This document shows, one piece after another, positions 6,194 to 59,553 of a stretch of 64,000 nt of DNA. The notes under the pieces were generated by a model. That model was not told where the DNA came from and did no database searches. It saw nothing but the letters and a program-made list of their open reading frames with translations. The stretch covers positions 103,604 to 167,603 of the forward strand of contig JBDRPX010000004.1 in assembly GCA_043826565.1 (NCBI GenBank), written 5' to 3'. How positions within the stretch are numbered: the first letter of the stretch is position 1; every line of letters begins with the position of its first letter. This stretch comes from Candidatus Omnitrophota bacterium. Its GTDB lineage: Bacteria > Omnitrophota > Gorgyraeia > B26-G9. Both the position numbers and the translations under genes were made by a program.

Positions 6194-9100
6194 ATGAAGA
6201 TGAAAAGATCAATAGTAGTTATGATGTGTATGGTTGTTTTTTTTACAATTCACTTTGCTGGTATTGATGATGCCAAAGCCTTTCAGATTAAAAGGGTGAT
6301 CAGGGGGTCCTATAGCCAGGCAATTGATGAGGAGGTAACAGTTGTTGATCTTACTTCTTTATTGGGCGGGGTGAACCTGGTTCCTGCGAAAACTATTCTT
6401 TTTTATACTATTGATCTTGATGATGAGGATGCCGAAGAGACTTTTACCAATGTAGCTTTAGACAGCCCTTCGGATCTGCTGATCAGCCGGTTTACCTCAG
6501 GTACGGGGCTTACAGTTAATTATGAACTTGTGGAGTTTGTTTCCGGGGTTAAAGTTATGCGCGGTCTTACCACTGTTCCGGAAACAGCAACGATTAAAAC
6601 TGTAACTTTACCTCAATCCATAATTGTTAATAAATCATATGTAACGGTTAATTCTAATGCTGTAAGAGGTTCTAATCTTAATGAAGAATTAAATACGTTT
6701 GCCGCGGAAATAGTTGATGAAACTACGGTCAGGTTCACAAGAACTGTTACTACTTCCCGATTTAATAATACTCTGGCTTATCAGGTTGTTTGTTTTGAAG
6801 GCCTTGATGGTTTAGGCGATGATGTCGTCTCAGTTCAGAAAGGGATAGATATTCTTCCTTCACCTGCCGGCGGGATGAGCCTTACTGTAGGTATAAATAG
6901 TGTTCAAACTGATAAATCTTTATTAATATTTTCAAGCCGGCCGGATACTCTTGCTGACGGTGATGAAGATATAATGTGTGTGGAGGGAATATTAAATGAT
7001 GCCGGCGGCGGAATGAGTGATGCGATACTTTTTAACCGTCAGGAAAATAATAATGATGATGTCACTTTATACTGGTTTGTAATTACTTTTAGTAATGAAA
7101 CTTTTGTTCAGAGTAAAACCCAAACCTTTATTTCTAATAGTAATCCCAACTTTACCATAGACACAGCAATTGTGCCCAGCCGCAGTTTTATTCAAGCATC
7201 TGTTTCGATTACCGGAGGCGGGACATCAGGTAAAGAAGAAACTACTCATGCCTTATATATTACTAATCCTACGACCATAGATACGCAGTGTTCCACAACC
7301 AGTGCTTATACTGTAAAACTTTCCTGGTTTGTAACGGAAATGCCGCCCTTAGAAGTTACTTATCCCAACGGCGAAGAAATTTTTGAAGTCGGAACAACAG
7401 AAAATATTACCTGGAATCATTCAGATGACGTTTTAAATACAGATTCAATGAGTATTGATCTTTCTATCAACAGCGGCAGTACGTATCCTTTAAATGTTAT
7501 AACCGGAGTTGACCCGACTTTAGATACATATGCCTGGAATATTCCCGCGGAAATAAGTTCAACCGGTATTATCGGAAATACCATAAGAGTTAAAATTACA
7601 GATACGACGATCAGCGCAAGAAATTTTGATACCTCAGACGCTGACTTTATAATAAAGGGAAGATTAATTATTGATCAGCCGCCGGACACCTGGCGTTTAG
7701 GCGAGACTCAAAATATAACCTGGGATGTACACGGTAGTTTAAATAGTTTACCTACAAACACTATGACGATTATGCTTTCTACGGATGGGGGCGGAAGCTT
7801 TGCTCATACTGTGAGTGCAGTGGCTGACCCGGGTGCCGGACAGTCTGATGGAAGTGCCGGCTCCGGAAGTTATGGGTGGACTATCCCATCAGATATGGAT
7901 GGTGAAAATTTAATCGGTACGGATAATCAAATAAAACTTATTCTTAATTACGACCCGGATGCGCCGAAGACAACAGTAACCAGTACAAGTTCTAATTTTG
8001 TTTTAAAAGGGCGAATTTTTAATGTTTCCCCGGCTAGTGATGAAACCTGGTTTTTGGGTGAAACAAAAAGTATTACCTGGGATAAAAATGGACACTTCGG
8101 CGCCGGTATTGCCGAGGGAACAGTAGATGTTTATTATTCCAGTAATGGCGGTTTGTCATATGGTACTATTGTTGCTGTAAGCCAACCTGCGGGGACAGAT
8201 GGTTCGGGGGGGAGTTATAATTGGACAATACCCAATAACACTCCTTTAGAAAATCCTGATTCGAAAATTAAAGTTTTTCAAACTACAGATACTTCGGTTT
8301 ATGGAGAAAGTGCTAATTTTTCTTTAATCTCATCACTTTTGCTGGATATTCCCAGCGGTACGGGAATTCTCTGGAAAGTGGGAACGGCTCATGATATTGA
8401 GTGGACAACTGCCGGTTCGGTTAGTATGGTTGACTTGCTCTATGATTCCGGCTCGGGTTATGTTTTAATTACACCTGCCGCGGGTATAGCTAATGCCGAT
8501 GTTTACAACTGGACAATTCCCGACGCTATAAGCAATAGCGTTAAGGTAAAAGTTCAGGATCACGATAATACGAATATATACGATGAGAGTGATAATTTAT
8601 TTTCCATAAAAGGATCAATAAGTGTTACCGAGCCTCATGCAACCGAAATTACACAAGTAAGTATAAATAAAGTTATTCAGTGGAATACTACGGGAAGTGT
8701 AGCCGGAACCGTAAACATTCGTTTGTCACAGAATGGCGGTTCTTCTTATGGGAGTATCATTAATTCAGTTGACGTTTCCAGCGGTTCGTATTCCTGGGCT
8801 CCGGTTGCCGGAGATATGGGTACTAATAATGTGATCAAAGTAGGGCTGCAGGGAGATGAAGACCCGGGAACCGGGACAGCCGGGGAAACAGGAGTTTTTG
8901 CCGTAGAAGCCAGTATTGACCTTACTTATCCGGATGCTTCCGGGTTAACGTATGGTATCGGAGATGAGGTTTATATCAAATGGACATCAAACCCCGCTGC
9001 GTTTGGAAACGTAAATATACGTTACTCAACGGATGGCGGATCTAATTATAATGGATTTATTGCCGACGGTGTTGCCTCAAATAATGTTCCCGGAGGAGAG

Positions 9101-12100: not shown

Positions 12101-15100
12101 ACAATTACTTCGCCGAATGGAACAGAATCTTGGATAATTGATGATATCCATGCGGTTACCTGGACCAGGACCGGTTCCCTGGGGAATGCAAAGCTGGAAT
12201 ATTCCACTGATGCCGGAGCAACTTATCCGAATGTAATTATCGGTACGATCGCGACGAATCTTTTAACGCATAATTGGACGGTTCCGGATGATCCTTCTAT
12301 CCAGGTTAAGGTAAAGATTACCAGTCTAGATGATTCTACGGTTACGGATTCTTCAAATGCCAATTTTACAATTAAAGGCAGTTTAAATTTAACCGCGCCG
12401 GACGGCCCGGAAACCTGGATCGTGGGTACGACCGAAGCGATTACCTGGACTAAATTAGGTTCCTTAAATCTGGTAACATTGGAATATTCAACTAATGGCG
12501 GAACAACTTATCCGAATGTAATTAATAATTCGGTATCCGCGGCAGCTTTATCTTATAATTGGCTGATCCCGGATGTGATCGGAACACAATTAAGAGTGCG
12601 GATTACCAGTAATGATAATGCGTCGGTAACAGATGTTTCCGCGGCTAATTTTGAAATTAAGGGATCTGTTACATTAACCGCGCCGAATGGTTCAGAAATT
12701 TGGTTTGTCGGTGAATCACGTAATATTACCTGGACGCATAATGGCGCGATCGGTAATGTAAGTTTGAAATATTCTACAGACGGCGGCAGTACCTATCCGA
12801 CGACAATTACTACCGGTGTAGCGGCAACAAATCTCACCTATGGCTGGACAGTTCCGGATAATATCGGTACTCAATTAAGAGTAGAGATCACTTCAGTTAA
12901 TGATTCAGCAGTAACTGATGAATCGAATAATAATTTTACGATCAAAGGAATTTTGCTCTTAACCTCTCCGAATGGCACAGAGGAATGGATCGTGGGATCT
13001 TCGCATAATATTACCTGGAACAGAACCGGATCAATTGCCAATGTGAAACTGGAATATTCAACCGACGGCGGTACTTCTTATCCGAATGAAATTATTGCCT
13101 CTACTGATGCGGCTGCTGGGAGTTATGGGTGGACTATCCCGGATTCAATTGATACGGATATTAGGGTAAGAGTTTCTGATGCTTTGGATTCTTCGGTAAA
13201 CGATTCTTCAAATGCTAATTTTACGATTAAAGGATCAGTTACACTAACTGCGCCGAATGGGGCAGAAAACTGGGTGGTTGCTTCTCATGAGAATATTACC
13301 TGGACCAAGACCGGGACGATCCCAACCGTAGAACTGCGCTATTCATTAAACGGCGGGACAAGTTATGATACAGTTATTAATGCCACGGTAACCGGATCGA
13401 ATTTAACTTATGATTGGACAATTCCGGATGATATTTCCGCTACGGTAAAATTAAAAATAACCAATAATAATGACTCAACAGTTTATGATACCTCCAATGC
13501 TAATTTCAAGATCATCGGTAATTTAGTGGTTGTCGCGCCTAATGGAACAGAAGAATGGGTTGTGGGAACATCTGAGAATATTACCTGGACAAGAACCGGA
13601 TCAATTGCCAATGTAAAGATCGATTATTCAATTAACAGCGGTTCAACATATCCGAACGCGGTAGTGGCTTCTACCGGAGCTGCGGGTTTAAGTTATGGCT
13701 GGACAATTCCGAATTCAGTATATAAAACAATTCGGGTGCGGGTTGCAGATGCCTCAGATGTAAATGTTTATGATGTTTCCAATGCTGATTTTACGATCAT
13801 GCCGGGTTTTCAAATTACCGCGCCGAATGGTTCGGAAGTATGGACTGTAGCAAATTCCGAGGATATTACCTGGATAACAACCGGTTCATGTACAAATGTA
13901 AAACTGGGATATTCAACTAATTCCGGGTCTACTTACACAGACATCATTGCTTCTACGCCCAATACAGAAACATATGGCTGGACAATTCCGGATGATTTAT
14001 CTATATCTTGTAAAGTTAAAGTTACTGATGTAGATAATGCTAATGCGCAGGATGAAACTAACGGTTTATTTAAAATTCGCGGGAACTTAACTATTACTGT
14101 GCCGAATGGTGCAGAATCCTGGGATGTGGCGGATGTCGAGAATATTACCTGGACGAGATTCGGTAGTATTGCTGCGGCAAAATTGGAATTATCCAAAGAC
14201 GGCGGAAGCACATATCCGGTTTTGATCATTGCGTCTACAGATGCTTCTTTGCTGACTTATGCGTGGACGATCCCGGATCAGTTGACAACTCAAGGAAGAA
14301 TAAAAATAACCAATACTGCGGACTCAACGGTATATGACGTATCCAATGCGAACTTTGCGATCAAGGGTGCGGTAACTTTAGCTGCGCCGAATGGCGGCCA
14401 GGATTTGGTAGTCGGCAGTGCGTATAATATTACCTGGACACGTTTCGGTTCAATTTTAAATGTAAAACTTGAATATTCAACTAATGGCGGTACAACCTAT
14501 CCGAATCTGATCATTGCGGCAACAGACGCGACTACGGAAACTTACGGCTGGGGGATCCCGGATGCTATCGGTTCGCAATTAAGAGTAAGGATAACGGACG
14601 TAGATAATTCTTTAGTGTCTGATACTTCGGATGCTAATTTTTCAATTAAAGGCGCATTGGAATTGACTGCGCCGGTTGGCGGAGAAATATGGTTTGTTAA
14701 TAATATTGAAGCTATAACCTGGACGCGTACCGGATCAATTGCTAATGTGAAACTGGAATATTCTACAGACGGCGGATCAACCTATCCGAATACAATCGCG
14801 GCAACGGTAACTGCGTCTTTACAGACTTATGCTTGGACAATCCCGGATGCTATCGGTTCTCAGTTAAGGGTAAAAATTACCGATACTTCCAATGCTACGG
14901 TAACTGATGAATCCGGCAGTAATTTCTATATTAAAGGAAAGCTGACTCTGAGTGCACCGAACGGCGGACAGACCTGGGTCGTCGGTGAATTGCGGAACAT
15001 TACCTGGGTACGTACCGGAAGTATTGCGAATGTGAAACTGGATTACTCTACTGACGCTGGCACAACTTATCCGAATGCTATTATCGCTTCTACCGATGCT

Positions 15101-18100
15101 TCTACCGGAACTTATGGCTGGACAGTAGCTGACGCGATCGGTACAAGTTTAAAGGTAAGAGTTGAAGATGCAACGGACAATACAGTAAGTGATGTGTCTG
15201 ATCTGGTATTTGAGATAAAGGGATCGTTAGTGTTGACCGCGCCCAACGGCGGTCAGTCATGGGTTGTTGATACAAGTGAAAATATCACCTGGACTAAGAC
15301 CGGAACTATTCCGCTGGTAACTTTGGAATATTCAGTGAACGGCGGATCAAGTTATGATACGGTAATTAATAATTCTGTAACCGGATCAGACTTGACTTAT
15401 GCGTGGACAATACCGGATTCGATTGGAGCAACTGTAAAGGTAAGAATAACAAATAATGATGACGGTACTGTTTATGATACCTCAAATGCAAATTTCAAGA
15501 TTATCGGTGCTTTGGCAGTAACTGCTCCGAATGGAACAGAAGAGTGGGTAGTAGGCACATCTGAGAATATAACCTGGACCAGAACCGGAAGTATTGCCAA
15601 TGTAAAAATCGATTATTCGATCAACAGCGGTGCAACATATCCGAACGCGGTTGTGGCTTCTACCGGAGCGGCCGGATTAAGTTATAGCTGGACGATCCCG
15701 AATTCAGTATATAAGACTATCAGGGTAAAAGTAGCGGACGCTTCAGATGTAAATGTTTATGATGTTTCCAACGCTGATTTTACGATCATGCCGGGTTTTG
15801 CGATTACCGCGCCTAATGGCGGAGAAGTCTGGTCAGTATCAGATTCGGAAGATATCACCTGGATAACTACCGGTTCATGTACAAATGTAAAACTGGAATA
15901 TTCGACAAACAGCGGTTCTACGTACACAGATATTATTGCTTCTACGCCCAATACAGAAACATATGGCTGGACGATCCCGGATAATTTATCCATATCCTGT
16001 AAAGTCAGGATATCCGATGTAGATAATCCTAATGCCATAGATACAACTGACGGATTATTTAAAATTCGCGGAGCTTTAACTTTGACCAGTCCGAATGGTT
16101 TTGAATCCTGGGATGTGGCCAGTGTTCATAATATTACCTGGGCCAGATTCGGTAGTGTTGCTAATGTTAAATTAGAACTATCAAAAAATTCCGGTTCAAC
16201 TTATCCTGTTTTGATTATTGGATCAACTGATGCTTCAATATTGAGTTATTCATGGACAATTCCGGATCAATTGACGACACAGGGAAGAGTTAAGATAACG
16301 GATACTTCAGATTCAACAGTATTTGACAGCTCAAATGATGATTTTGGTATTAAAGGTGCGGTAACTTTAACCGCGCCCAACGGCGGACAAGATCTAGTGG
16401 TCGGCAGTGCGTATAATATTACCTGGACACGTTTCGGTTCAGTTCTTAATGTAAAACTGGAGTATTCAACTAATGGCGGTACAACCTATCCGAATCTGAT
16501 CATTGCGGCAACAGACGCGACCACCGGAACCTATGGCTGGGGTATCCCGGATGAGATTGGTTCTCAATTAAGAGTGAAAATTACTGATGCGGCGAATTCC
16601 CTGGTTTTTGATACTTCAGATGCAAACTTTAGCATTAAAGGTAATCTGCTTTTAAATACACCTAATGGCGGAGATATTTGGTTTGTTAATAATATTGAAA
16701 ATATAACCTGGACGCGTACCGGATCAATTGCTAATGTGAAGTTGGAATATTCAACTAATGGCGGCAGTACTTATCCGAATACAATCGCGGCAACTGTAAC
16801 AGCTTCTTTACAAACTTATGCCTGGACAATCCCGGATGCGATCGGTTCTCAGTTAAGGGTAAAAATTACCGATACTTCTAATTCTACGGTAACTGATGAG
16901 TCTAATGCAGATTTTTATATTAAAGGAAAGCTGGTAGTGAATGTGCCTAATGGCGGGCAGACCTGGATCGTCGGTGAATCCCGCAATATTACCTGGACGC
17001 GGACCGGTTCAATCGCCAATGTAAAACTTGATTATTCTACTGACGCTGGCACAACGTATCCGAATGTTATTATCGCTTCTACAGATGCTTCTACCGGAAC
17101 TTATTCCTGGACTGTACCGGATGCGATTGGAGCTAATTTAAAAGTTAGAGTTGAAGATGCAACGGATAATACAGTCGTTGATGTGTCGGATGCGGTTTTT
17201 GAGATTAAAGGCTCTTTAACCTTAACCGCGCCCAATGGCGGACAGTCATGGGTTGTTGATACAAGTGAAAATATCACCTGGACTAAGACCGGAACAATTG
17301 CCAATGTGGAATTGCGATATTCAATTGACGGAGGAACAGGATATGATTATGTGATCATTGCTTCAACGCCGGGTGCTAATTTAACTTATGCTTGGACAAT
17401 TCCGGATGATATTGGAGCAACAGTAAAAGTGAAGGTTACGGATGTAAGTGATTCTTCTGTATACGATACCTCAAATGCAAATTTCAAGATCGTGGGTGCT
17501 TTGGCAGTAACTGCTCCGAATGGAACAGAAGAGTGGGTAGTAGGCACATCTGAGAATATAACCTGGACCAGAACCGGAAGTATTACCAATGTAAAAATCG
17601 ATTATTCGATCAACAGCGGGGCAACATATCCGAACGCGGTTGTCGCTTCTACCGGAGCCGCGGGATTAAGTTATAGCTGGACGATCCCGAATTCAGTATA
17701 TAAGACCGTCAGGGTAAGAGTAGCGGATGCGTCAGATGTAAATATTTATGATGTTTCCGATGCAAATTTTACAATCATGCCTTCTTTTGCGATCACCGCG
17801 CCTAACGGCGGAGAAGTCTGGGATGTTGCCTCATCGAGAGATATTGAATGGACAACTACCGGTGATTGTACAAATGTAAAACTGGAATACTCAGTTAATT
17901 CCGGGTCGACTTATACAGATATAATAGCTTTAACGCCGAATACAGAAATCTATTCCTGGACAATTCCGGATAATTTATCCATATCCTGTAAGATCAGGAT
18001 ATCTGATGTGGATAATACTAATGCCATAGATACAACTGACGGATTATTTAAAATTCGCGGAGCTTTAACCTTAACCGCACCGAATGGATTTGAATCCTGG

Positions 18101-30100: not shown

Positions 30101-33013
30101 AGCGGCACGACTTATCCGAACGTGATTAACGCGTCTGCTCCAAATGGTGCCGGTGGTGCGGGAAGTTACAGCTATGCCTGGACCATTCCGGATGATATTT
30201 CACAAACAGTTCGGGTAAAAGTTGAAGATCCTAATGACAATACCGTGTTTGATATTTCTAATGCTAATTTGAAGATCCGGGGTAATCTGACTTTGACTTC
30301 TCCGAGTGGAGGAGAACGCTGGGTAACCAGAGAAGATAGAAATATTACCTGGACTACAGTTGGTTCTATTGCGAATGTAAGGCTAGAATATTCTATCAAT
30401 AGCGGAGCAACCTATCCGTTTGTAATCGCGGTTTCCACGATAAACGCTGATTTTTACACTTGGTCAGTTCCGGATAACCGTTATCCTACAGTAAGAGTCA
30501 GACTTGAAGACGCCAGCGATGATACAGTAGCTGATGAATCAAATGCTGATTTTACGATTGATTACTACTCAGTTACCTGGGAACTTCGTGATTTGTTGAC
30601 CAATGAACATATTAGTCAGCTTGTAGTCGATGGTAGTTCAACTAAAGGTGATGGATGGGCAACTGACAATATGCCGGGTAATCCGGGTGTGCCGCTTGGT
30701 TCTCCGGTAACGGTGGAATTGCCGTATGGTTTGTGGACCATGGTCTGGACATGTGTAGGGTATGGTGATAAGCAGTATACGTTTGAGCTTAATGCTGATA
30801 AGGTATTAGATCCGCTGTATATGGAAACTACGGTAATCCATATCTGGCGTGCATATTCAGAGTTTACCTATGAAACAGGAACCGATACTTTGAAAGTGAC
30901 TTCCTGGCTGGAACGTGACGGATATGTAGTATCAGGTGCGGAACATGTGGATCTGTTTATTTATGAGGAAACCGGTGATTTGATCAACCGGGTCACTCGT
31001 AACTACATAGATAAAGATGGTGTGCCGCAGACTGTAAATTGTACGATGACTTCCTCAACTCCGAACACTGCGGGATTTTTCAACCTTAATTGGGCAAGTT
31101 GCGGTTTGCAGGATCAGAAAGTATATTCAGTAGTAACGTATATTACCAATGCCAGCGGCGCGCTGTTTAAAACGCCAACATCGTTCAGTATTACTGCGAC
31201 TAAGCAGTTGAAAGAAACGCAGGATGCAATGACAACTTTGACCGGAACGACATTCCCGGGTTTCCAGACATCAATTGAAAATACGATCAATACAGCCACG
31301 GCCCAGCAGACGGCAACGATCAATGCCGCTACAGCAGCCCAAAAGCAAACTTTAGAAACCGGTATTGATGAGCAGAAGACAATGATTGAGACTAAGATGA
31401 ACCAGCAGACAGAATTGATCGATACAAAGACCGATGAAATGCAGGCATCCATGGATGCGACGCTGACTAGTTTTGAAGAAAGAACCGATGAAACTGTTAA
31501 GCAGCTGCAGACTGGTGCGGATACGGCAATTAAGGCCGGTCAGGAACTCGAAGCAACGGCTAAACGTCAGTCCGGTGAATTAATCCTGCCGAATACTGTA
31601 TTGGCTGGTGATAGAGTAGAAATCCGCTATCGTAACGATTCCCGGCTGATGCCGTTAATGGATATTATCACTTATGACGGAACCTTGGTTTACAATGCTC
31701 AGCCGTTGATGGAGTCTGCGACAACTGCCGGTTTGTATGGGTTTGACCTTCTTGCCGATGGAAAAACATTCAAGTCGGGAAAAGCGGTTACCGTAGTGGT
31801 AAGAGAAATTAAAACAGGGAATTTGGAAGCCGGATCATTCATGGTAGAGGCAACATCATTAACATCGATTGAAGGTCTGCTGGCAATGAATCCGCAGATG
31901 AAATCCGATGTGCAGGAAGCTTTGAGTTCTATTCAGTCGGTTCAGGGTTCCTTGGCTACCGGCGGTGATGTGGGTAAGGCCTTGAATCAATTACAGCAGA
32001 CAATGGATGATCTGCCGGCTATCCTTGCCGATGAAGTATTCTCCGAAGGCACTGCCGGCGGTGAGATGGTTACTAATATCAATGCCATGGTCGAAAAATT
32101 GATCGGCTTAGCTAGTGAAGAAGGCTATGACATAAGCGGACTGGTAGAAGATGCTTTAAGTAATTCGCCGACGATTAAGGAGATCAGAGAGAAGACAGAA
32201 AAGATCAAGAGCGCGGTTAAATTCCTGCAGGCTTTGTTTGAGCATAAATTCGGCGGTATGGAAGATGAGCCGATTGTTTCGACATCAATGTCCAGCGGCA
32301 GCATCATCCTGAATGTTGTGGCGGCTAATCCGTCCAGCGCGAAACCGCAAAATACAAAAGTAAAAGTATATCTGCCGCAGGAGGTAACGCCTAAAGATAT
32401 TATGGATACCGGCGGATTAGATGTGGAATTTGATGCGACTAAATCTATCTACTATGTATACAAAGATAATATACAACTTGCAGAAAAAGAAATAAGAGTG
32501 TATAAAGTAGAAATAGAAGATATCTGGATGATTTCGCAGTCGACACTTGATATCCTGAAACTAAGATCCGTGAAGTTAGCAGAAGCTTTTGCTAAGACCG
32601 AACATGCCGAACAGATAAGTGAATTAGCAGACCGGATTGCTTCTCAGTTAGAGGATATTAGTGTATCGCAGGCAGATGCTAATGTCAGCAGAGAGCGCCA
32701 TATCGGGATCTATCGTACCAATATGCAGACAATTGAAAGCATAAAGGAAGAACTTACCGATATGGAAAAACTCTCTGTTCAGAAACCGGGAGAAGTCGGA
32801 GCACTGACAAAGTCGATGACGGTGAAGATCATTCTGACGGTAATAGTGTTTATCGCCTTATTGGCCGGTGTATTCTTCTTTACCTGGAATAGAGCCGCGA
32901 GCGCGACAAAAGGGACTTTAGATAAAGCGAAACAGTTTTCTTTCCCCGGAGGTGAAGAGGAGGCTGAAGACGCAGATTCCGACAGAGAAGTTAAAAAGAA
33001 AAAAAGAAAATAG
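6194..33013 (+). CDS. giant repetitive surface protein (8,939 aa): signal peptide, unique N-terminal domain, ~80 tandem beta-sandwich-like modules, coiled-coil domain, C-terminal TM anchor with a charged tail
   Basis: A single uninterrupted ORF of 26,820 nt with a GAGAGGTG RBS. N-terminus MKMKRSIVVMMCMVVFFTIHFAG is a signal peptide. The repeat consensus is TAPNGGExWxVGxxxNITWTxTGSIxNVKLEYSTDGGxTYPNxIxASTxAxxxTYxWTIPDxIGxxLRVKVTDxxDxxVxDxSxxNFxIKG. C-terminal TM is ILTVIVFIALLAGVFFFTW, followed by EEEAEDADSDREVKKKKRK. Confidence 0.8.
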   Translation: MKMKRSIVVMMCMVVFFTIHFAGIDDAKAFQIKRVIRGSYSQAIDEEVTVVDLTSLLGGVNLVPAKTILFYTIDLDDEDAEETFTNVALDSPSDLLISRFTSGTGLTVNYELVEFVSGVKVMRGLTTVPETATIKTVTLPQSIIVNKSYVTVNSNAVRGSNLNEELNTFAAEIVDETTVRFTRTVTTSRFNNTLAYQVVCFEGLDGLGDDVVSVQKGIDILPSPAGGMSLTVGINSVQTDKSLLIFSSRPDTLADGDEDIMCVEGILNDAGGGMSDAILFNRQENNNDDVTLYWFVITFSNETFVQSKTQTFISNSNPNFTIDTAIVPSRSFIQASVSITGGGTSGKEETTHALYITNPTTIDTQCSTTSAYTVKLSWFVTEMPPLEVTYPNGEEIFEVGTTENITWNHSDDVLNTDSMSIDLSINSGSTYPLNVITGVDPTLDTYAWNIPAEISSTGIIGNTIRVKITDTTISARNFDTSDADFIIKGRLIIDQPPDTWRLGETQNITWDVHGSLNSLPTNTMTIMLSTDGGGSFAHTVSAVADPGAGQSDGSAGSGSYGWTIPSDMDGENLIGTDNQIKLILNYDPDAPKTTVTSTSSNFVLKGRIFNVSPASDETWFLGETKSITWDKNGHFGAGIAEGTVDVYYSSNGGLSYGTIVAVSQPAGTDGSGGSYNWTIPNNTPLENPDSKIKVFQTTDTSVYGESANFSLISSLLLDIPSGTGILWKVGTAHDIEWTTAGSVSMVDLLYDSGSGYVLITPAAGIANADVYNWTIPDAISNSVKVKVQDHDNTNIYDESDNLFSIKGSISVTEPHATEITQVSINKVIQWNTTGSVAGTVNIRLSQNGGSSYGSIINSVDVSSGSYSWAPVAGDMGTNNVIKVGLQGDEDPGTGTAGETGVFAVEASIDLTYPDASGLTYGIGDEVYIKWTSNPAAFGNVNIRYSTDGGSNYNGFIADGVASNNVPGGETEIGYKWTIQDVVGMVSPTCRVKVYQVGKLAQVYSESQYDFNVKGTLNLTAPDGGETWYVDQFESITWTKGGDLGTLKLAYSINGGSDGYPATIATSIDADDLSYPWQIPDAIGTQLKVKAIQETDTTTNDVSVGVFTIKGRFSISAPVGGETWYVGTQENIGWTTYGTIDKVNLYYSTDGGGTFGSTIATNLTNAEGYLWTIPDAIDNDIRVRVESFYDNTVAHESTGNFTIKGRVFVTAPNGPEEWRVGATENITWTVYGAIGNVEIRYSTNSGASYDTVIVASTPALNQTYAWTNIPDEIGTSLKVKITSISDGTVNDESDADFELKGVLTLTAPNGAQIWNVGNSENITWTKQGTLGNVELRFSTDSGVTFPVGNVIATGVAATATPHPWTIPDKIGDKLRVRVMLLNDPTNVYDDSDNDFEIKGKLTLTAPNGPEEWGVGTSQAITWARFGSIANVKLEYSTDGGNTFPNTITDSTSASAQTYNWTIPDAIGTSLQVKISDASDGAVSDTSDASFEIKGRLILLHPNGAETLAVNQPYTIDWTTYGTINKVNLYYSINGGSSYDANIVLALNNTGSYGWTIPDAIGSQLRVKINNDDDTTVEDVSNGDFTIKGSVTLTAPNGGQTWIVDDSQNISWSKQGSIGTVQLDYSTNGGTSYDFSIAAGVASGDLSKAWTIPNAISNNVKVKITQESDTSVNDESNAAFEIKGSILVTAPNGAESWSIGGTEDITWIRHGSIGNIQILYSTDSGSTYPFTVTGSTDSSTQTYSWVNIADTPSTTCRVKMTSLSDSSVTDDSNSNFRIRANITLTAPNGLEEWIVGTTENITWTKTGSIPNVALEYSLNSGSTYPKAIVTTSGEALSYTWTIPDDISGLVRVQIRNTSDATVSDTSNADFSIKGSVTMESPDGGEVYVVGSAYDIEWSYVGSIPNVKLEYSINGGSTFPYEIIASTPAVALAYSWTVPDTITGQLVVKVSDAVDSTVDDDSDAYAKIRGSLTITSPNGTESWIIDDIHAVTWTRTGSLGNAKLEYSTDAGATYPNVIIGTIATNLLTHNWTVPDDPSIQVKVKITSLDDSTVTDSSNANFTIKGSLNLTAPDGPETWIVGTTEAITWTKLGSLNLVTLEYSTNGGTTYPNVINNSVSAAALSYNWLIPDVIGTQLRVRITSNDNASVTDVSAANFEIKGSVTLTAPNGSEIWFVGESRNITWTHNGAIGNVSLKYSTDGGSTYPTTITTGVAATNLTYGWTVPDNIGTQLRVEITSVNDSAVTDESNNNFTIKGILLLTSPNGTEEWIVGSSHNITWNRTGSIANVKLEYSTDGGTSYPNEIIASTDAAAGSYGWTIPDSIDTDIRVRVSDALDSSVNDSSNANFTIKGSVTLTAPNGAENWVVASHENITWTKTGTIPTVELRYSLNGGTSYDTVINATVTGSNLTYDWTIPDDISATVKLKITNNNDSTVYDTSNANFKIIGNLVVVAPNGTEEWVVGTSENITWTRTGSIANVKIDYSINSGSTYPNAVVASTGAAGLSYGWTIPNSVYKTIRVRVADASDVNVYDVSNADFTIMPGFQITAPNGSEVWTVANSEDITWITTGSCTNVKLGYSTNSGSTYTDIIASTPNTETYGWTIPDDLSISCKVKVTDVDNANAQDETNGLFKIRGNLTITVPNGAESWDVADVENITWTRFGSIAAAKLELSKDGGSTYPVLIIASTDASLLTYAWTIPDQLTTQGRIKITNTADSTVYDVSNANFAIKGAVTLAAPNGGQDLVVGSAYNITWTRFGSILNVKLEYSTNGGTTYPNLIIAATDATTETYGWGIPDAIGSQLRVRITDVDNSLVSDTSDANFSIKGALELTAPVGGEIWFVNNIEAITWTRTGSIANVKLEYSTDGGSTYPNTIAATVTASLQTYAWTIPDAIGSQLRVKITDTSNATVTDESGSNFYIKGKLTLSAPNGGQTWVVGELRNITWVRTGSIANVKLDYSTDAGTTYPNAIIASTDASTGTYGWTVADAIGTSLKVRVEDATDNTVSDVSDLVFEIKGSLVLTAPNGGQSWVVDTSENITWTKTGTIPLVTLEYSVNGGSSYDTVINNSVTGSDLTYAWTIPDSIGATVKVRITNNDDGTVYDTSNANFKIIGALAVTAPNGTEEWVVGTSENITWTRTGSIANVKIDYSINSGATYPNAVVASTGAAGLSYSWTIPNSVYKTIRVKVADASDVNVYDVSNADFTIMPGFAITAPNGGEVWSVSDSEDITWITTGSCTNVKLEYSTNSGSTYTDIIASTPNTETYGWTIPDNLSISCKVRISDVDNPNAIDTTDGLFKIRGALTLTSPNGFESWDVASVHNITWARFGSVANVKLELSKNSGSTYPVLIIGSTDASILSYSWTIPDQLTTQGRVKITDTSDSTVFDSSNDDFGIKGAVTLTAPNGGQDLVVGSAYNITWTRFGSVLNVKLEYSTNGGTTYPNLIIAATDATTGTYGWGIPDEIGSQLRVKITDAANSLVFDTSDANFSIKGNLLLNTPNGGDIWFVNNIENITWTRTGSIANVKLEYSTNGGSTYPNTIAATVTASLQTYAWTIPDAIGSQLRVKITDTSNSTVTDESNADFYIKGKLVVNVPNGGQTWIVGESRNITWTRTGSIANVKLDYSTDAGTTYPNVIIASTDASTGTYSWTVPDAIGANLKVRVEDATDNTVVDVSDAVFEIKGSLTLTAPNGGQSWVVDTSENITWTKTGTIANVELRYSIDGGTGYDYVIIASTPGANLTYAWTIPDDIGATVKVKVTDVSDSSVYDTSNANFKIVGALAVTAPNGTEEWVVGTSENITWTRTGSITNVKIDYSINSGATYPNAVVASTGAAGLSYSWTIPNSVYKTVRVRVADASDVNIYDVSDANFTIMPSFAITAPNGGEVWDVASSRDIEWTTTGDCTNVKLEYSVNSGSTYTDIIALTPNTEIYSWTIPDNLSISCKIRISDVDNTNAIDTTDGLFKIRGALTLTAPNGFESWDVADVENITWTRFGSVANVKLELSKDSGSTYPVMIIASTDASLLTYAWTIPDELTTTGRVKITSTADSTVLDSSNNNFAIKGSLLLTAPNGAEELVVGNAFNVTWNRFGSIMSVKLEYSTNSGTTYPNLIIAATDATTGTYGWGVPDDLSITVRVKVSDVDNALVYDTSDANFIIKGSLTLTAPNGGNIWFVNDVQNITWTKTGSIANVKLEYSTDAGSTYPNTIAATVDAALGTPYAWTIPDAIGSQLMVKVTDTSNATVTDVSNGTFYIKGKLVLNAPNGGQVWVVGESRSITWTRTGSISNVKLDYSTDGGTTYPNAIIASTDASTGTYGWTVADAIGASLKVRVSDAADSTVNDVSDAVFEIKGSILLTAPNGSEVWEVNSVQNITWTKTGTIPTVELRYSKNAGTSYDYIINASVSGAALTYAWTVPDEIGATTRVRITNNDDTSVYDTSNSNFKIVGVLVVTSPNGGQEWVVGTSQNITWTRTGSIANVKIDYSINSGSTFPLAVVASTPAAGLNYAWTIPNSVYKTIRIRVADASDVSVYDDSNADFTIMPAFNITAPDGGEVWDVASSQDITWATTGSCTNVKLEYSVNSGSTYNEIIASTPNTELYAWTIPDNLSISCKIRITDVDNPNAQDATTGLFKIRGALTLTAPNGFESWDVASVHNITWTRFGSVANVKLELSKDSGSTYPIMIIASTDASLLTYAWTIPDELTTTGRVKISSTADSSVLDSSNNDFAIKGAVTVTAPNGGQDLVVGSAYNITWTRFGSIMNVKLEYSTNSGTTYPNLIIAATDATTGTYGWGVPDDLSTTVRIKVTDAGNALVFDSSDADFTIKGSLTLTAPNGGNIWFVNDVQNITWTKTGSIPTVKLEYSIDGGSTYPNMIAATVDAALGTPYAWTIPDAIGSQLMVKVTDTSNSSVTDVSNSTFYIKGKLTLTAPNGGQTWIVGESRSITWSRIGSIANVKIDYSTDSGTTFPNAIVASTDASTGTYSWTVADAISTTLKIRVSDASDSTVYDDSNADFEIKGSLTLTVPNGSEVWTVNSVQNITWTKTGTISNVELRYSKDGGSAYDYVIIGSTPGADLSYAWTIPDDICSTTRVKITDVSDAAVYDNSNSNFKIVGAFGVTTPNGGQEWVVGKTESIVWIRTGSIANARIEYSINSGTAYGNLVIASTPAAGLSYGWTLPNAVYKTIRIKVMDASDISVFDTSDADFTIMPEFTITSPDGGEVWDVNSSEDITWSTTGDCTNVKLEYSVNSGSTYTDIIALTPNTETYAWTIPDNLSISCKIRISDVDNPNAIDTTDGLFKIRGALTLTSPNGFESWDVADIENVTWTRFGSVANVKLELSKDSGSTYPVLIIASTDASLLTYAWTIPDQLTINGRVKVTSTADSTVFDRSDADFAIKGALLLTAPNGGEELEVGVPTTVTWNRFGTILNVKLEYSTDAGLTFPGLIIAATPAGTGSYVWSVPDALSPEVRVKVTDVANSLVFDTSDADLTIKGKLTVGGPNGGEVWFVGESRNITWIRSGSIPTVKLEYSTNGGATYPNMIAPSYDASLLSYSWTVPDAISIQIRVKVTDIANTTVADSSNGDFTIKGSLILTAPNGGEEWVVNAVQNISWNRTGSIPTVKLEYSTDAGSTYPNTIIASTSAATGLYAWTIPDAIGTQLRVRISDTSDATVMDTSNLNFIIRGVLLLTAPNGGEAWQIATSKNITWSRTGSVGFVKLQYSLDGGVTFPTTIIASTDASTGTYAWTIPDNPCTTTKVKISDASDSVVADISDVNFKIIGDLTLTTPVGTEQWVIGGPQRKISWTMVGSIANVKLEYSINSGASYDYLINASTPAGALEYYWTIPDTATTTARVKITDASDISVGDTSPADFSIQADFTITAPNGAEVWIVGDSEDITWGTVGSVGNVKLAYSTDGGATYPNVIIASIGNTGTYGWTIPDALSATVRVKVSDVNDAQAFDDSDVNFKIRGDLVLTAPNGGETWIVASSHNVTWTRLGSIPTVKLEYSINGGLTYPNSIIASIAASLGTHNWTIPDNISNQVRVKVTDTSDSTVYDESNSNMFIKGSLTLTVPNGAEEWVVGTGENITWARVGSIANVKLEYSTNSGGTYPNTIIASTDASTGSYAWPIPDVLSTTLRVRVSDVTDVAVNDTSNANFMIKGDLELNSPNGGEIWYVGQSRSVTWTRTGSIASVKLEYSTDSGTTFPNTIISSTDASTGTYAWSVPDAISENLRVRVTDTSNATVFDDSNLDFTVKGVLLLNAPNGGETWVVAASQNITWTPTGTISNVKLEYSTDGGNTYPNTIIASTPGMVGTYAWTVADSIGANAKVRVSDAADASVYDVSNATFTIKGSLVVTSPNGAEVWGVATAHNITWSRTGSISTVKIEYSTDGGSTYPNTIAATADAATGSYGWTIPDDISSQVRVKITDNSDATVFDASNVNFKIVGILDLISPDGGEMWEVNTNHNITWTRVGSIANVRLDYSVNSGATYPNAIVASTPAGALSFTWTIPDAVSKTVRVRIADALDINVFDASTADMTIMAQFNITAPDGGEVWTVASSHDITWGTTGTVTTVVLDYSTDGGATYPNNITGSAANTGSFPWTIPDAISSQVKVRVSDYNNVDASGASDANFKIRGGVTVTSPNGSESWMVGNSQNITWSIIGSIANVKLEYSTDGGATYPFTIIGSVDATSGTYAWIIPDNISTSARVKVTDATDSTVYDTSNNNFIIRGGLIVNIPNGAEDWQIESVQNITWMRTGSIQNIKIEYSTNGGSTYPNVIVNSFDASLATYPWMIPDTITNLARVRITDVDNAAVYDTSDNNFKIKGALVVNTPNGAEVWEVTTSHAITWSRTGSISNIRLDYSTDSGATFPNAIAASLNAALGTYAWTIPDNISSAVRVRATNISDALVYDDSDADFKIVGQLLLSSPDGGEVWPVGSSQSVIWSPIGSIVNVKLDLSTNGGVSFPTVIAASLTASDGSYNWTVPDTISQTARIKVSDVSEPSIVFDTSDGNFKIRGDLLLTSPNGSEVWLINSNHNITWTRFGSITNARLEYSKDSGTTFPNLIVGSVDASLQTYNWLTPDDAGIQLRVRVSDAADSTVYDISDGNFIIRGGFSLTAPNGAERWAVGTEHDITWSTFGTIVNVRLTYSSNNGSTWTSIIGSTPNTDMYPWTIPDRISSQCLVKVADVVDADANDQSDAVFTIHGALTVTAPNGGEAWQVASGKTITWTRTGAVVNVKLEYSTNGGSTYPNLIVASTSGAAGTYAWTVPDAITDSVRVRISDADDALVIDTSDGNFKIVAGFSITAPNGGETLVVAASENITWTTLGTVGNVRLDYSTNAGTSWTIITATTINAETYPWTVPDAISEQCRVRVMDVTDSSAFDISNNNFKIRGNLTLTSPNGGEEWAVGTNQLITWSRVGSISTVMLEYSDNAGGIYVPITNNALNTGSYSWAVPDAITTQALVRITNVADLSVTDVSDGQFKIQGSFTLTSPNGGEAWFVGSSQNINWTWNGTVPFIKLELSTNGGSTYNLVSDNVANIGTYAWTIPDQVSGTCRIMISDATDADANDTSNGNFRIRCKFTIANPNGSEQWRVGQTRAINWSNVGTSSTVNLAYSRDGFGADSQTIATGIVNAGTHNWTIPDSISETVRVRVSDPTDAGAYDDSNNDFRITGDFTVTSPNGGEMWDVNSAHDITWTWQGTMPQVRIEYSTDGGASYPNIITATDNDGTYEWTVPDSITAQMRVRVSDLADLTAADNSNSNAKIKAQFLLIEPNGGEIFTVSDTTDITWTSVGTVPNVNLQYSTNGFITPVSIISATANDGSYTWTIPDAISTNVTVRVMSSTDNDAYDISNAAFKIQGDLAITAPNGGEQWAINQVNNITWNTTGSIANVQILYSINSGVSYPYSITASVANTNSYGWTVPDTATANARIRIIDVADATISDDSDANFRIQGYFSVTSPNGAESWIVNDVHNITWNWGGTLPFVHLSYSTDSGTTYPNVINASAPNGAGGAGSYSYAWTIPDDISQTVRVKVEDPNDNTVFDISNANLKIRGNLTLTSPSGGERWVTREDRNITWTTVGSIANVRLEYSINSGATYPFVIAVSTINADFYTWSVPDNRYPTVRVRLEDASDDTVADESNADFTIDYYSVTWELRDLLTNEHISQLVVDGSSTKGDGWATDNMPGNPGVPLGSPVTVELPYGLWTMVWTCVGYGDKQYTFELNADKVLDPLYMETTVIHIWRAYSEFTYETGTDTLKVTSWLERDGYVVSGAEHVDLFIYEETGDLINRVTRNYIDKDGVPQTVNCTMTSSTPNTAGFFNLNWASCGLQDQKVYSVVTYITNASGALFKTPTSFSITATKQLKETQDAMTTLTGTTFPGFQTSIENTINTATAQQTATINAATAAQKQTLETGIDEQKTMIETKMNQQTELIDTKTDEMQASMDATLTSFEERTDETVKQLQTGADTAIKAGQELEATAKRQSGELILPNTVLAGDRVEIRYRNDSRLMPLMDIITYDGTLVYNAQPLMESATTAGLYGFDLLADGKTFKSGKAVTVVVREIKTGNLEAGSFMVEATSLTSIEGLLAMNPQMKSDVQEALSSIQSVQGSLATGGDVGKALNQLQQTMDDLPAILADEVFSEGTAGGEMVTNINAMVEKLIGLASEEGYDISGLVEDALSNSPTIKEIREKTEKIKSAVKFLQALFEHKFGGMEDEPIVSTSMSSGSIILNVVAANPSSAKPQNTKVKVYLPQEVTPKDIMDTGGLDVEFDATKSIYYVYKDNIQLAEKEIRVYKVEIEDIWMISQSTLDILKLRSVKLAEAFAKTEHAEQISELADRIASQLEDISVSQADANVSRERHIGIYRTNMQTIESIKEELTDMEKLSVQKPGEVGALTKSMTVKIILTVIVFIALLAGVFFFTWNRAASATKGTLDKAKQFSFPGGEEEAEDADSDREVKKKKRK
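7340..30550 (+). repeat. intragenic tandem repeat array, ~285-nt (95-aa) unit in ~80 copies, with a ~1.99-kb (7-unit) super-repeat present ~5 times between ~13.5 and 23.4 kb
   Basis: Direct reading shows the same 95-aa module recurring. Blocks starting near 13500, 15480, 17465, 19450 and 21440 are nearly identical at the nucleotide level. Confidence 0.85.
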
Positions 33014-33198: not shown

Positions 33199-33450
33199 AT
33201 GGAAGCAAAATTACTAAGTGTTACTGTTTTAAGTCCGGAGAAGATTGTCTTTAAGGGGAAAGCTAAACGAGTTATCCTTCCGGGAGAAAAAGGAGTTTTT
33301 GAAATCCTGCCTTTTCACAAGCGGCTATTAAGCCGTTTACTTTCCGGAACGGTTATTATTGATGAACTAATGATTTCTATTTATCGCGGAGTAGTGCAGG
33401 TCGGAGAAAACAACGTGATGGTGATCATGGAGAATGAAAGAAAAGAATGA
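33199..33450 (+). CDS. atpC: F-type ATPase epsilon subunit, short form lacking the C-terminal helical hairpin
   Basis: LSVTVLSPEKIVFKGKAKRVILPGEKGVFEILPFHKRLLSRL is the epsilon N-terminal beta-sandwich. The product is only 83 aa. Confidence 0.55.
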   Translation: MEAKLLSVTVLSPEKIVFKGKAKRVILPGEKGVFEILPFHKRLLSRLLSGTVIIDELMISIYRGVVQVGENNVMVIMENERKE

Positions 33451-33457
33451 AAAACAG

Positions 33458-33545
33458 CGCATAGCGGGCAGCGTTTAGCGGATAGAAAAAGCAAAAAAAT
33501 AATATTAACTATACGCTATCCGCTCTACGCTAAACGCTATAAACG
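33458..33545 (+). repeat. inverted heptamer-array element of the ACGCT type, copy 2
   Basis: Left arm ATAGCGG GCAGCGT TTAGCGG ATAG, then an A-rich spacer. Right arm CTATACG CTATCCG CTCTACG CTAAACG CTATAAA, then CGGAGTG and ATG 33556. Confidence 0.7.
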
Positions 33546-33555
33546 GAGTGAATTT

Positions 33556-33774
33556 ATGGCCCGGCAAATAATATTACTATTTATTTTCATGCTTTGTATT
33601 TTAGGCCCCTCAGGCGTAATGGCTATTGCCGCTTTTGCCAGTATCTCGGCCCTGGGCCGGAATCCTTCGGCCGCGCCGAAAATTTTTACGGCGATGACAA
33701 TTACCTTAGTTTTTGCGGAAGCGCTGGCAATTGTGGCAATGCTGATAGTTTATCAGCTGTTTATGATGGGGTAA
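33556..33774 (+). CDS. atpE: F-type ATPase c subunit
   Basis: A 72-aa two-helix hairpin with a GRNP loop and a conserved carboxylate in helix 2 (VFAEALAIVAML). GGAGTG RBS lies upstream. Confidence 0.7.
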   Translation: MARQIILLFIFMLCILGPSGVMAIAAFASISALGRNPSAAPKIFTAMTITLVFAEALAIVAMLIVYQLFMMG

Positions 33775-33904
33775 ACAGGTCGCAGGTTGCAGGTTTCAAG
33801 ATATACTGTAACAGTCATAGTTTTTGAGACTTGTGACATGAGACTTGAGACATGAAGAGTGACTTTTTGTGTAATTATAGGTATAATAAGGACATAAGTA
33901 TAAA

Positions 33905-33990
33905 AAATGAGAATTGATAATTGAAAATTGTAAAAGCCAGTCAGTGATTTTCCAATATTCAACATTCAATACTCAATTTTCAAACTCGAT
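33905..33990 (+). repeat. conserved ~80-bp intergenic inverted-heptamer element, copy B
   Basis: TGAGAATTGATAATTGAAAATTGTAAAAG...TTTTCCAATATTCAACATTCAATACTCAATTTTCAAACTCG lies immediately 5' of the atpF-like start at 34001. Confidence 0.7.
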
Positions 33991-34000
33991 GAGGTGATAT

Positions 34001-36188: not shown

Positions 36189-36393
36189 TATTATGAGTAA
36201 AAAGATTTTTTAAATTACAATATACAATTTTCAAATTAAAAATAAGTAGAATCTTTAGGATGTTTTATTACACTTTGTGGAATTATTTAAGTGATTTTGA
36301 TTTGTATATTGGAATTTGGTTGTAATTTGAGATTTGTAATTTTTGTTTATTCTTCTTACTTGGGATGTACTGTTATTTAAGGGGCTAATTAGA

Positions 36394-40933: not shown

Positions 40934-40956
40934 TTTTTAATCAGTAAGAAAGAATT

Positions 40957-42180: not shown

Positions 42181-42244
42181 CGAAGTTACAGGTTACAAGT
42201 GACAGGTGACAAGTTGTAATAAATAAATCAAGAAAAAATCAATA

Positions 42245-43099: not shown

Positions 43100-43165
43100 A
43101 TCAAAAATCAAAAGTCAAAAGGCAAAATTACAATGCAAAATTCAAAAATAAAAAGATAAATGATA
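43093..43165 (+). repeat. degenerate heptamer array (AANTCAA-like, ~10 units) upstream of gspG
   Basis: The sequence reads AAATCAA AAATCAA AAGTCAA AAGGCAA AATTACA ATGCAAA ATTCAAA AATAAAA AGATAAA TGATAAA. Confidence 0.55.
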
Positions 43166-43184
43166 AAAAGACTGGAGGAAAGTC

Positions 43185-44061: not shown

Positions 44062-44069
44062 TCGTGTTT

Positions 44070-44690: not shown

Positions 44691-44770
44691 AATGATGATT
44701 ATTGAGAGTTGATAATTGAAAATTGTAAAAATATTTGATGTTTTTCCAATAGACAACACTCAACGGTCAA
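44688..44770 (+). repeat. conserved ~80-bp intergenic inverted-heptamer element, copy C
   Basis: TGAGAGTTGATAATTGAAAATTGTAAAAAT...TTTTTCCAATAGACAACACTCAACGGTCAATTTTC lies upstream of the gspK-like start at 44810. Confidence 0.65.
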
Positions 44771-44809
44771 TTTTCTTATTAACTATTTTAGGAAAAATTA
44801 TTTAAGCAT

Positions 44810-59552: not shown

Positions 59553-59553
59553 C

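Follow-up and report, generated by a model that had tools for sequence, protein, structure and literature searches.

The window analysed here is a 64-kb stretch of contig JBDRPX010000004.1 from a Candidatus Omnitrophota bacterium, and its largest feature is a single giant gene, followed on the same strand by genes for an unusual F-type ATPase and for type 4 pilus (T4P) and type II secretion system (T2SS) components. Omnitrophota are marked by giant genes, which metagenome assemblies almost always cut short and which have been described as poorly conserved and functionally opaque. The window contains a complete, internally consistent member of a giant-gene family whose conservation extends from end to end. 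The main interest lies in the fixed, often overlapping position of this gene before an ATPase/pilus locus of a kind already proposed for symbiosis.

The giant open reading frame (ORF; 6194..33013, plus strand) starts with ATG, encodes 8,939 amino acids (aa) without interruption and ends at one terminal stop. Its frame is kept over 26.8 kb and it covers 41.9% of the window, in agreement with a first-pass annotation made from the sequence, which had claimed one ORF of 8,939 aa in ~42% of the window. With a stop frequency of ~5% per codon, chance would not produce 8,939 stop-free codons. Across the whole protein, a Kyte-Doolittle scan found two hydrophobic segments only, at aa 3-27 and aa ~8879-8898, matching the signal peptide and the C-terminal transmembrane (TM) helix with cytoplasmic tail that had been claimed. 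The first belongs to a predicted Sec-type signal peptide (6194..6280, plus strand; aa 1-29) with the n-region MKMKR, a hydrophobic core and an AKA/FQ cleavage site after A29 (the slash marks cleavage); the junction AxA/[YF]Q[IV]KRV behind a hydrophobic leader is common to >20 homologues. The second is the TM helix (nt 32828-32887), followed by a 41-aa tail that ends in KKKKRK. The protein as a whole is strongly acidic, with 971 D+E residues versus 516 K+R. The giant ORF is a genuine gene for a Sec-exported protein with an all-beta module array and a C-terminal TM helix. The topology would be type I, with the N-terminus outside and the C-terminus in the cytoplasm, and export would run N-terminus first and halt at the TM helix. 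While the earlier label of “tail anchor” is correct in that a single TM helix lies 41 residues from the end, the cleavable signal peptide makes this a type I (stop-transfer) anchor, and the term is therefore a misnomer; a strictly tail-anchored protein is ruled out by the conserved N-terminal signal peptide and the predicted type I topology.

Behind the signal peptide lies an N-terminal head (6281..7345, plus strand; aa 30-384) composed of three ~115-aa beta-rich sub-repeats, each ending in [YW]xV[VI]EF, which is presumed to be the distal tip of the fibre. A word-indexed search with the head found one close relative only; an exhaustive HMMER profile search found 399 cluster representatives at E<=1e-3 and 125 at E<=1e-10. 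In most of the higher-scoring matches sampled, the head is N-terminal and sits right behind the signal peptide, and it is followed by modules of the Kre9_KNH type in every homologue tested.

The head is followed by an array of tandem ~95-aa modules (7346..30565, plus strand; aa 385-8124). Using a profile made from clearly delimited modules, 81 consecutive modules were found to tile this region essentially without linkers, against the ~80 estimated from the sequence, so that 355 aa of mature N-terminal region and 815 aa of C-terminal region lie outside the array. The C-terminal region is thus present as claimed, but somewhat shorter than the ~840 aa given for it. The computed module consensus, ..ltaPNGge.W.V....nITWtr.Gsi.nVkLeYStn.G.typ..I.ast.a...tY.WTiPD.i....rV...d..d..v.D.Sna.F.I.G, agrees with the pattern W..G....ITW... 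of the first-pass annotation. A likeness to Pfam family Kre9_KNH (PF10342), which that annotation had suggested, was borne out when Pfam was searched: two fragments scored 27.2 and 49.6 bits and the two halves of the protein 147.4 and 136.4 bits (gathering score 24.6 bits), and the homologues P0016, P0029 and P0133 match the same family. The modules carry an Asp-box-like YSxDxGxTY/F hairpin motif, and the Asp-box S-x-D-x-G-x-T-W/Y/F occurs in the array 32 times in strict form and 76 times in relaxed form, or about once per module. Because each module carries such a motif, the Asp-box-bearing Pfam family Reelin_subrepeat-B reaches a summed 86.6 bits (cut-off 27), with no single stretch significant alone.

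Evidence for the shape of the array came from structure prediction. An AlphaFold2 model of three modules, with 73 aligned overlapping three-module windows of the giant itself as input, is all-beta, with a mean predicted local distance difference test (pLDDT) score of 97.7 and a predicted template modelling (pTM) score of 0.85. Foldseek matched this model to strings of immunoglobulin (Ig) and fibronectin type III (FN3) domains, and together these results indicate that the array is an extended FN3/Ig-type rod; as modelled, the modules are rigid and linker-less. A sequence search of PDB chains with the modules, the C-terminal region and the N-terminal head returned nothing significant. FN3-type domains are ~3.5 nm long, at which length a stalk of 81 modules would extend for ~0.28 micrometres, about one diameter of ultra-small Omnitrophota cells.

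The array contains a higher-order repeat. A super-repeat zone (13520..23470, plus strand; aa 2443-5759) consists of five copies of a seven-module block of 663-664 aa (1989/1992 nt), and repeat families in the DNA of the gene show the same 1989/1992-nt spacing. Best-matching modules among the five copies are 62-94% identical, most of them 75-94%, as against ~48% for unrelated modules, and modules 7, 14 and 21 positions apart reach up to 94%, 90% and 86% identity. More diverged blocks flank the zone. Among the five copies, synonymous divergence (dS) is 0.76-1.64, non-synonymous divergence (dN) 0.12-0.28 and dN/dS 0.11-0.22; with one flanking block added on each side, the seven blocks give dS 0.76-2.6, near saturation, dN 0.12-0.44 and dN/dS 0.11-0.27. 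Near-saturated dS together with low dN implies that the duplications are old and that every copy is under purifying selection. These data show that the giant grew in length through ancient duplication of seven-module blocks.

Repetitive genes invite the suspicion that repeat collapse, expansion or chimerism created the long ORF, or that it is a pseudogene, and the first-pass annotation had raised the worry of an assembly artefact. The gene is highly repetitive, relatives almost always end at contig ends within the array, and one relative contig is full of frameshifts; nevertheless, an artefact is hardly credible, since neighbouring modules share only ~48% protein and 60-70% DNA identity, exact DNA repeats are 90 nt long at most and so all fall short of 100 nt, the frame is perfect throughout, unique sequence flanks the giant on both sides in one 64-kb contig, the old and selected duplications differ from what a collapse, an expansion or a decaying pseudogene would look like, and an independent full-length homologue of 6,910 aa (P0026) has the same architecture of signal peptide, N-terminal head, ~60 modules and C-terminal region. 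The same homologue disfavours the idea of a fixed cell-length ruler, because its module number differs from the 81 found here. The frameshifted contig (L005, 1-20948; ENA ERZ1286166 contig_3991, 135 kb) has the orthologous giant and ATPase genes chopped into many short ORFs. Such fragmentation is typical of uncorrected long-read frameshifts; a long-read assembly does span such a gene there and is unusable for its length.

C-terminal region and membrane anchor

AlphaFold2, proposed at the outset as a check on both the modules and the C-terminal region, was also run on the latter. The model places, in order, two sandwiches (C-region residues 1-210, pLDDT up to 93), a long helix, a sandwich, a helical segment, a further sandwich, helices and the TM helix. 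The first two beta-sandwich domains (30566..31195, plus strand; aa 8125-8334; pLDDT ~70-93) carry the signature HIWRAYSxFxY...SWLERDG and are kept in all homologues. They are followed by a ~100-residue helix rich in Thr, Gln, Ala and Glu (31262..31570, plus strand; aa 8357-8459), modelled as a single long helix at a pLDDT of 55-65, with conserved positions at i, i+4 and i+8. This is the segment that had been described as a Thr/Gln-rich coiled coil. The helix is predicted, with modest confidence; however, hydrophobicity at heptad positions a and d is no better than in shuffled sequences (p=0.78), so a coiled coil is not established. Alignments and the model then place a beta-sandwich (aa 8462-8552) and a helical segment (aa 8567-8686; together 31577..32251, plus strand), which end at a KFGGxDxPIVST boundary. 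Four homologues (P0003, P0004, P0006 and P0026) stop at this boundary.

The remainder is an anchor module (32288..33013, plus strand; aa ~8699-8939), for which alignments and the model give a beta-sandwich, helices, the TM helix and the 41-aa cytoplasmic tail. Evidence that this module is a unit of its own came from relatives in which a gene of its own encodes the last ~240 aa, as a protein of 265-276 aa that has its own signal peptide and shares the C-terminal TM helix. Fused or separate depending on the locus, the anchor is a gene by itself in L002, L003, L004, L012-L014 and L016, and the module in the window is 37-42% identical to the free-standing 265/276-aa proteins of L002 and L003. Judged by these alignments, the window protein is a fibre fused to a dedicated single-pass membrane anchor. 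That the anchor is a separate membrane protein in relatives is the strongest evidence for placing the fibre base at the cytoplasmic membrane, and shows that the base docks on, or in the window protein is fused to, a dedicated single-pass membrane protein. The cytoplasmic tail motif FFFTW[HNY]R ... [AS][KR]xx[FA]FP (including ..AKxxxFP..) is kept across all species. One of the contigs with a separate anchor (L003, 1-6862; GCA_042570245.1 JBHPHM010000061.1) is a near-perfect inverted duplication, in which the anchor and a 706-aa protein with a short C-terminal region lie on the minus strand, followed by the same pair on the plus strand. It looks like an assembly or amplification chimera, and its “complete” 706-aa protein may be a truncated giant.

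Globular parts of the C-terminal region had been called unique; both the N-terminal head and the C-terminal region are instead conserved family domains. A first search with the C-terminal region found 6 relatives and a profile search 10, nearly all labelled Omnitrophota or “Omnitrophica” and most of them partial. Scanning one genome per GTDB species for the C-terminal signature gave 20 genome loci, nearly all in metagenome-assembled genomes (MAGs) of Omnitrophota, with a few labelled PVC, Planctomycetia or Deltaproteobacteria. The closest relatives are Omnitrophota MAGs, in line with the earlier remark that giant genes of this kind mark a few uncultivated lineages. In the best-matching locus (L006) the C-region domain is 64% and the ATPase beta subunit 83% identical; the GTDB representatives therefore do not include the species from which the window comes. 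In 20 of 20 loci the giant ORF extends, still open, to the upstream limit of the locus, usually a contig end, and is fully tiled by the 1-35 modules that remain. Assembly has cut short essentially all relatives, which makes an intact copy such as that in the window unusual and useful. On the evidence of these comparisons, the head, modules, C-terminal region and anchor are conserved within a family found mostly in Omnitrophota MAGs, and the signatures HIWRAYS...WLERDG and A/YQVKRV provide a means to find it in fragmented data.

The F-type ATPase and pilus genes

The giant gene is followed by an F-type ATPase cluster (33199..38641, plus strand), identified with Pfam and NCBIfam, in the order epsilon-c-b/delta-alpha-gamma-beta. 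Epsilon (33199-33450) is short, at 83 aa, and consists of the N-terminal domain only, lacking the C-terminal helical domain; its length is 75-112 aa across 22 loci and <=90 aa in 19 of them. Subunit c (33556-33774) retains the GRNP loop and the TM2 glutamate. The next gene is a b-delta fusion (34001-34732) with OSCP detected in its C-terminal part only, and the alpha (34680-36188), gamma (36343-37236) and beta (37226-38641; 471 aa) subunits follow, all on the plus strand. No multi-TM ORF resembling subunit a was found in the 64-kb window or in 25 loci (L001-L025); a 206-aa ORF behind beta in some loci was rejected as a candidate, being a tetratricopeptide repeat (TPR) protein. The intergenic spacers of the cluster (33461-33540) contain imperfect 25-nt inverted repeats (e.g., ATAGCGGGCAGCGTTTAGCGGATAG / CTATCCGCTCTACGCTAAACGCTAT), which might be REP-like elements.

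The same ATPase gene order lies directly behind the giant or anchor gene in all 22 loci found via the giant, and the distance from the stop of that gene to the start of epsilon is <=40 nt, or the genes overlap, in 10 of the 22. Loci found via the giant could be biased by how they were ascertained, and a reverse test was made in which metagenome contigs were searched with the b-delta protein. A giant-family gene was directly upstream of epsilon in 26 of the 28 loci with informative upstream sequence. This count includes L031 (45-3333), where the array stops at a module boundary (...AAAEIR, then the stop codon) 70 nt before epsilon, with neither C-terminal region nor anchor; this is either a distinct architecture, a deletion or an assembly join. 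In the two exceptions, L047 and L053 (b-delta at 1288 and 10001), pilus genes come right before b-delta: a secretin and a TPR/coiled-coil protein precede b-delta-alpha-gamma-beta, with neither epsilon nor c upstream. These loci thus show another arrangement of an ATPase of the same type. The available sequence upstream of b-delta, 10 kb in L053 and 1.3 kb in L047, contains no giant gene.

Downstream of the ATPase cluster, Pfam identified a T2SS/T4P-like set (38750..47900, plus strand) with an MshE-type ATPase bearing a C-terminal PilZ domain, GspF, peptidase_MA_2, G/J/K-like pseudopilins, PilM-N and PilO. MshE followed by GspF lies behind the ATPase cluster in every related locus that reaches far enough. 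The end of beta (38641) and the start of the MshE-type gene (38750) fall within the 10 kb that defines a “symbiotic” ATPase/type-4a pilus (T4aP) locus, and the same holds in relatives. A second pilus set (49321..62105, plus strand) contains a pilin (49321-49788), PilB-, PilT- and PilB-like ATPases, PilC, PilM, PilO and a secretin (60276-62105). The secretin implies an outer membrane, which the fibre would need to cross. The MshE-type protein itself (38750-40933) has an MshEN domain and the extra PilZ domain, a fusion also present in L002, L004 and L005; both are cyclic di-GMP-binding modules, which suggests cyclic di-GMP control of the downstream system. Genes for phosphoglycerate kinase (PGK; 48104-49285) and triosephosphate isomerase (TIM; 49847-50614) sit between the two pilus/T2SS gene sets.

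On the upstream side, a 145-aa ORF (5696-6133) with an N-terminal signal-like hydrophobic segment and no family match ends 60 nt before the giant, and a hairpin between the two (6137-6154) scores as a terminator on the minus strand only. Further upstream are a 389-aa ORF (4525-5694) with an N-terminal RAYT/IS200-like Y1 transposase domain and a long uncharacterised C-terminal extension, and a group of envelope-glycan genes (631-4192) encoding a WbqC-like protein, an AAA_22 ATPase, a PIG-L deacetylase and a 9-TM GT4 (WecA/MraY-like) transferase. Across the window, 29 of 30 ORFs of >=150 aa are on the plus strand, GC skew is positive throughout and cumulative skew rises monotonically, consistent with a single replichore with strong leading-strand gene bias.

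Possible functions of the fibre

Giant ORFs and pilus-linked ATPases have both been reported from Omnitrophota before. Seymour et al. proposed that the giant ORFs are adhesins, reported that every Omnitrophota class has “symbiotic”, non-respiratory F-type ATPases linked to T4aP, and suggested for the ATPase/T4aP loci a role in attaching to host cells or moving on them (Seymour et al. 2023, PMC10066038). Two other studies found giant genes flanked by T2SS/T4P genes (10.1101/2023.11.21.568195; 10.64898/2026.06.07.730766). The main text of Seymour et al. treats the two features separately and draws no link from the giants to the ATPase; “ATP synthase” is absent from the main text of West-Roberts et al. 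2023 (10.1101/2023.11.21.568195), and in that of Nielsen & Lui 2026 (10.64898/2026.06.07.730766) it appears as metabolism only. What appears to be new here is the end-to-end definition of a family, the split or fused anchor module, the seven-module super-repeat and the near-obligate linkage to an F-type ATPase lacking subunit a. This linkage joins the two separately reported traits, giant ORFs and the “symbiotic” ATPase/T4aP locus, in one testable hypothesis of a host-attachment organelle. The function had been listed as unknown, and it can be narrowed: in dozens of loci the gene is operon-linked to T2SS/T4P genes and a non-canonical F-type ATPase.

The position of the family before the ATPase/pilus cluster suggests a host-attachment machine. 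The reading favoured here, with moderate confidence, is that the giant protein is the membrane-anchored attachment arm of the “symbiotic” F-type ATPase/T4aP locus and tethers the cell to a host or prey cell. The fibre would be exported by Sec, N-terminus first, and would halt at the TM helix, leaving its base in the cytoplasmic membrane. It would fold to a rod of ~0.3 micrometres and would probably be threaded through the outer membrane with the help of the adjacent T2SS/T4P-like system and the secretin. The N-terminal head, and possibly many weakly glycan-binding Asp-box modules, would then be shown to the surface of the host or prey cell, and the fibre would tether the small cell to it.

Several observations weigh against the attachment-arm model. 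An inner-membrane anchor in a diderm leaves the passage of the fibre through the outer membrane unexplained, and the conserved gene order could be partly a matter of common descent and not of function. Neither end showed a binding or catalytic fold that could be recognised: the N-terminal head has no Pfam, NCBIfam or PDB match, and Pfam, NCBIfam and fold searches with the C-terminal region gave no such fold, with only chance-level family matches (Remorin_C, GldM_1st, ATP synthase B'). The model of the C-terminal region was built from 11 sequences and has moderate confidence (pLDDT 65); its Foldseek matches are generic Ig/MG/adhesin-extender sandwiches with TM scores of ~0.1, and were not used to assign function.

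A second model makes the ATPase a motor. The adjacent F-type ATPase, running in the direction of hydrolysis, would drive the fibre as a “leg” through its anchor and cytoplasmic tail, as the counterpart, in a diderm, of the gliding unit of Mycoplasma mobile (F1-like ATPase to membrane proteins to Gli521 to Gli349 leg) or of a type-3 ATPase-driven surface system. The tight, bidirectional and often overlapping linkage of the giant/anchor and ATPase genes would fit such a leg, as would the conserved motif of the cytoplasmic tail and an ATPase cluster that is atypical everywhere, with its short epsilon, b-delta fusion and no subunit a found. The C-terminal domain of epsilon inhibits hydrolysis in bacterial F1, and the epsilon encoded here lacks this domain. 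From the literature, Seymour et al. placed the alpha subunit of the T4aP-linked ATPase with Mycoplasma type 2/3 ATPases (PMC10066038), and the Mycoplasma motor has been proposed to stem from an F1Fo-ATPase meeting a membrane adhesin (PMC11864180). PGK, which in M. mobile is a structural part of the F1-like ATPase motor (PMC11864180), is encoded within the pilus cluster, a placement that may be coincidence. However, by raw score the ATPase does not resemble the M. mobile motor more than it does canonical F1: alpha and beta score ~460 and ~450 bits against canonical F1, and beta scores 320 bits against M. mobile G1-beta. Beta also lacks the N-terminal PGK-binding extension, subunit c with its GRNP loop and TM2 glutamate fits an ordinary ion-translocating Fo with subunit a encoded elsewhere, no physical link is known between a single-pass anchor and a rotary motor, and two ATPase loci (L047 and L053) have no giant. 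While a motor-driven leg is accordingly doubtful, its fullest form can be stated. Fibre, anchor and the short-epsilon ATPase lacking subunit a would be one machine, in which a hydrolysing rotary ATPase pulls or re-sets a 0.3-micrometre adhesive leg and the pilus/T2SS provides outer-membrane passage; this, too, is improbable. If true, it would be an independent diderm counterpart of the F1-like-ATPase surface machines of Mycoplasma, and an organelle with which ultra-small Omnitrophota hold or move over host cells.

It is similarly unlikely that the fibre is a scaffold or coat of the envelope, lying in the periplasm or along the cell surface as a belt, spacer or “veil”. An inner-membrane anchor combined with an outer membrane, indicated by the secretin, makes the periplasm the default location, and the estimated length of the stalk is comparable to cell size. 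The purifying selection on every module would suit such a role, and the titin-like seven-module super-repeat suggests structural periodicity; the giant proteins of V. archaeovorus have been proposed to form a coat (PMC10066038). On the other hand, module number varies by species (81 here versus ~60 in P0026), Pfam and NCBIfam scans detected no peptidoglycan- or membrane-binding domains, and an organelle pointing outwards would better suit the conserved distal head and the linkage to genes for pili and secretion.

Still less probable is a sorted or released adhesin, in which an exosortase-, rhombosortase- or sortase-like enzyme would cleave off the C-terminal TM helix and basic tail, leaving a fibre that is attached to the envelope or released by the T2SS. 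Known C-terminal sorting signals do resemble a C-terminal TM helix with a basic cluster, a T2SS-like system is adjacent, and where relatives encode the anchor separately, the fibre lacks a TM helix of its own. Nevertheless, no NCBIfam sorting-domain model matches, the tail, at 41 aa and with a conserved internal motif, is far longer than sorting signals, the anchor can stand alone as a membrane protein that brings its own signal peptide, and the window shows no gene for a sortase or exosortase. The missing NCBIfam match, the tail length and the autonomous anchor gene in relatives also led to the rejection of PEP-CTERM, LPXTG and GlyGly-CTERM proteins as candidates for the giant.

Comparison with known systems

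The likeness to the fungal Kre9/Knh1 proteins is confined to the ~95-aa domain, which the same Pfam model recognises above threshold. The giant is not a member of that family, whose members, proteins of the beta-1,6-glucan cell wall, are small eukaryotic secretory proteins with one such domain near the N-terminus and, usually, a Ser/Thr-rich or GPI region behind it, as opposed to 81 bacterial tandem copies with unrelated ends and a TM anchor. Kre9_KNH/PF10342 is not mentioned in the papers of West-Roberts et al., Nielsen & Lui or Seymour et al. The A-band of titin, a eukaryotic intracellular ruler and spring, has super-repeats of 7 and 11 Ig/FN3 domains. Its 7-domain super-repeat resembles the seven-module super-repeat of the giant by analogy only.

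Among known Omnitrophota giants, the protein belongs with the “tandem-repeat scaffold” class of Nielsen & Lui 2026, since one domain type dominates by copy number and a signal peptide and TM helix are present. It also shares with the giants described by Nielsen & Lui, West-Roberts et al. and Seymour et al. the same phylum-level lineage, T2SS/T4P and transposase genes nearby and a proposed role in adhesion to host or prey. There are differences: the catalogue of Nielsen & Lui starts at >=10 kaa (thousand aa), and the window giant, at 8.9 kaa, falls below this; it has one TM helix, whereas the catalogued Omnitrophota giants have many. A giant of the archaeovorin/dockerin type (West-Roberts 2023) was rejected, as only two hydrophobic segments are present and a Pfam search of the whole protein found no SecA-DEAD, dockerin, TSP3, C39 or enzyme domains.

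The gliding machinery of M. mobile (Gli349, Gli521, G1 ATPase and PGK) offers a parallel in that very large membrane-anchored surface proteins are tied, both genetically and in function, to an ATPase derived from the F-type in a small host-dependent bacterium (PMC11864180). In contrast to M. mobile, the window ATPase keeps the c, b/delta, gamma and epsilon subunits, and the organism is a diderm with pili. The 471-aa beta subunit aligns to residues 286-741 of the 784-aa M. mobile G1-beta and lacks the PGK-recruiting extension.

In function, a parallel may be drawn with the giant adhesins exported by type I secretion systems (T1SS), such as LapA, MpIBP and SiiE. Like these, the giant is a predicted rod of hundreds of nm made of tandem Ig-like extenders, with functional ends and an acidic composition, and extender domains of MpIBP, SiiE and a “large adhesion protein” were weak structural matches of the C-region model. 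The export route differs: LapA, MpIBP and SiiE are exported C-terminus first by a T1SS and have RTX repeats and an N-terminal outer-membrane plug, whereas the giant has a Sec signal peptide and a C-terminal inner-membrane anchor. An RTX/T1SS adhesin proper was rejected because no Pfam scan gave a HemolysinCabind or RTX match and because the Sec signal peptide is present. The neighbours of the giant include no T1SS genes (ABC transporter, membrane fusion protein or TolC) and instead encode glycosyl-transfer, Y1 transposase, F-ATPase and T2SS/T4P proteins. By analogy with LapA, MpIBP and SiiE, the giant would work as a giant repeat adhesin or extender fibre.

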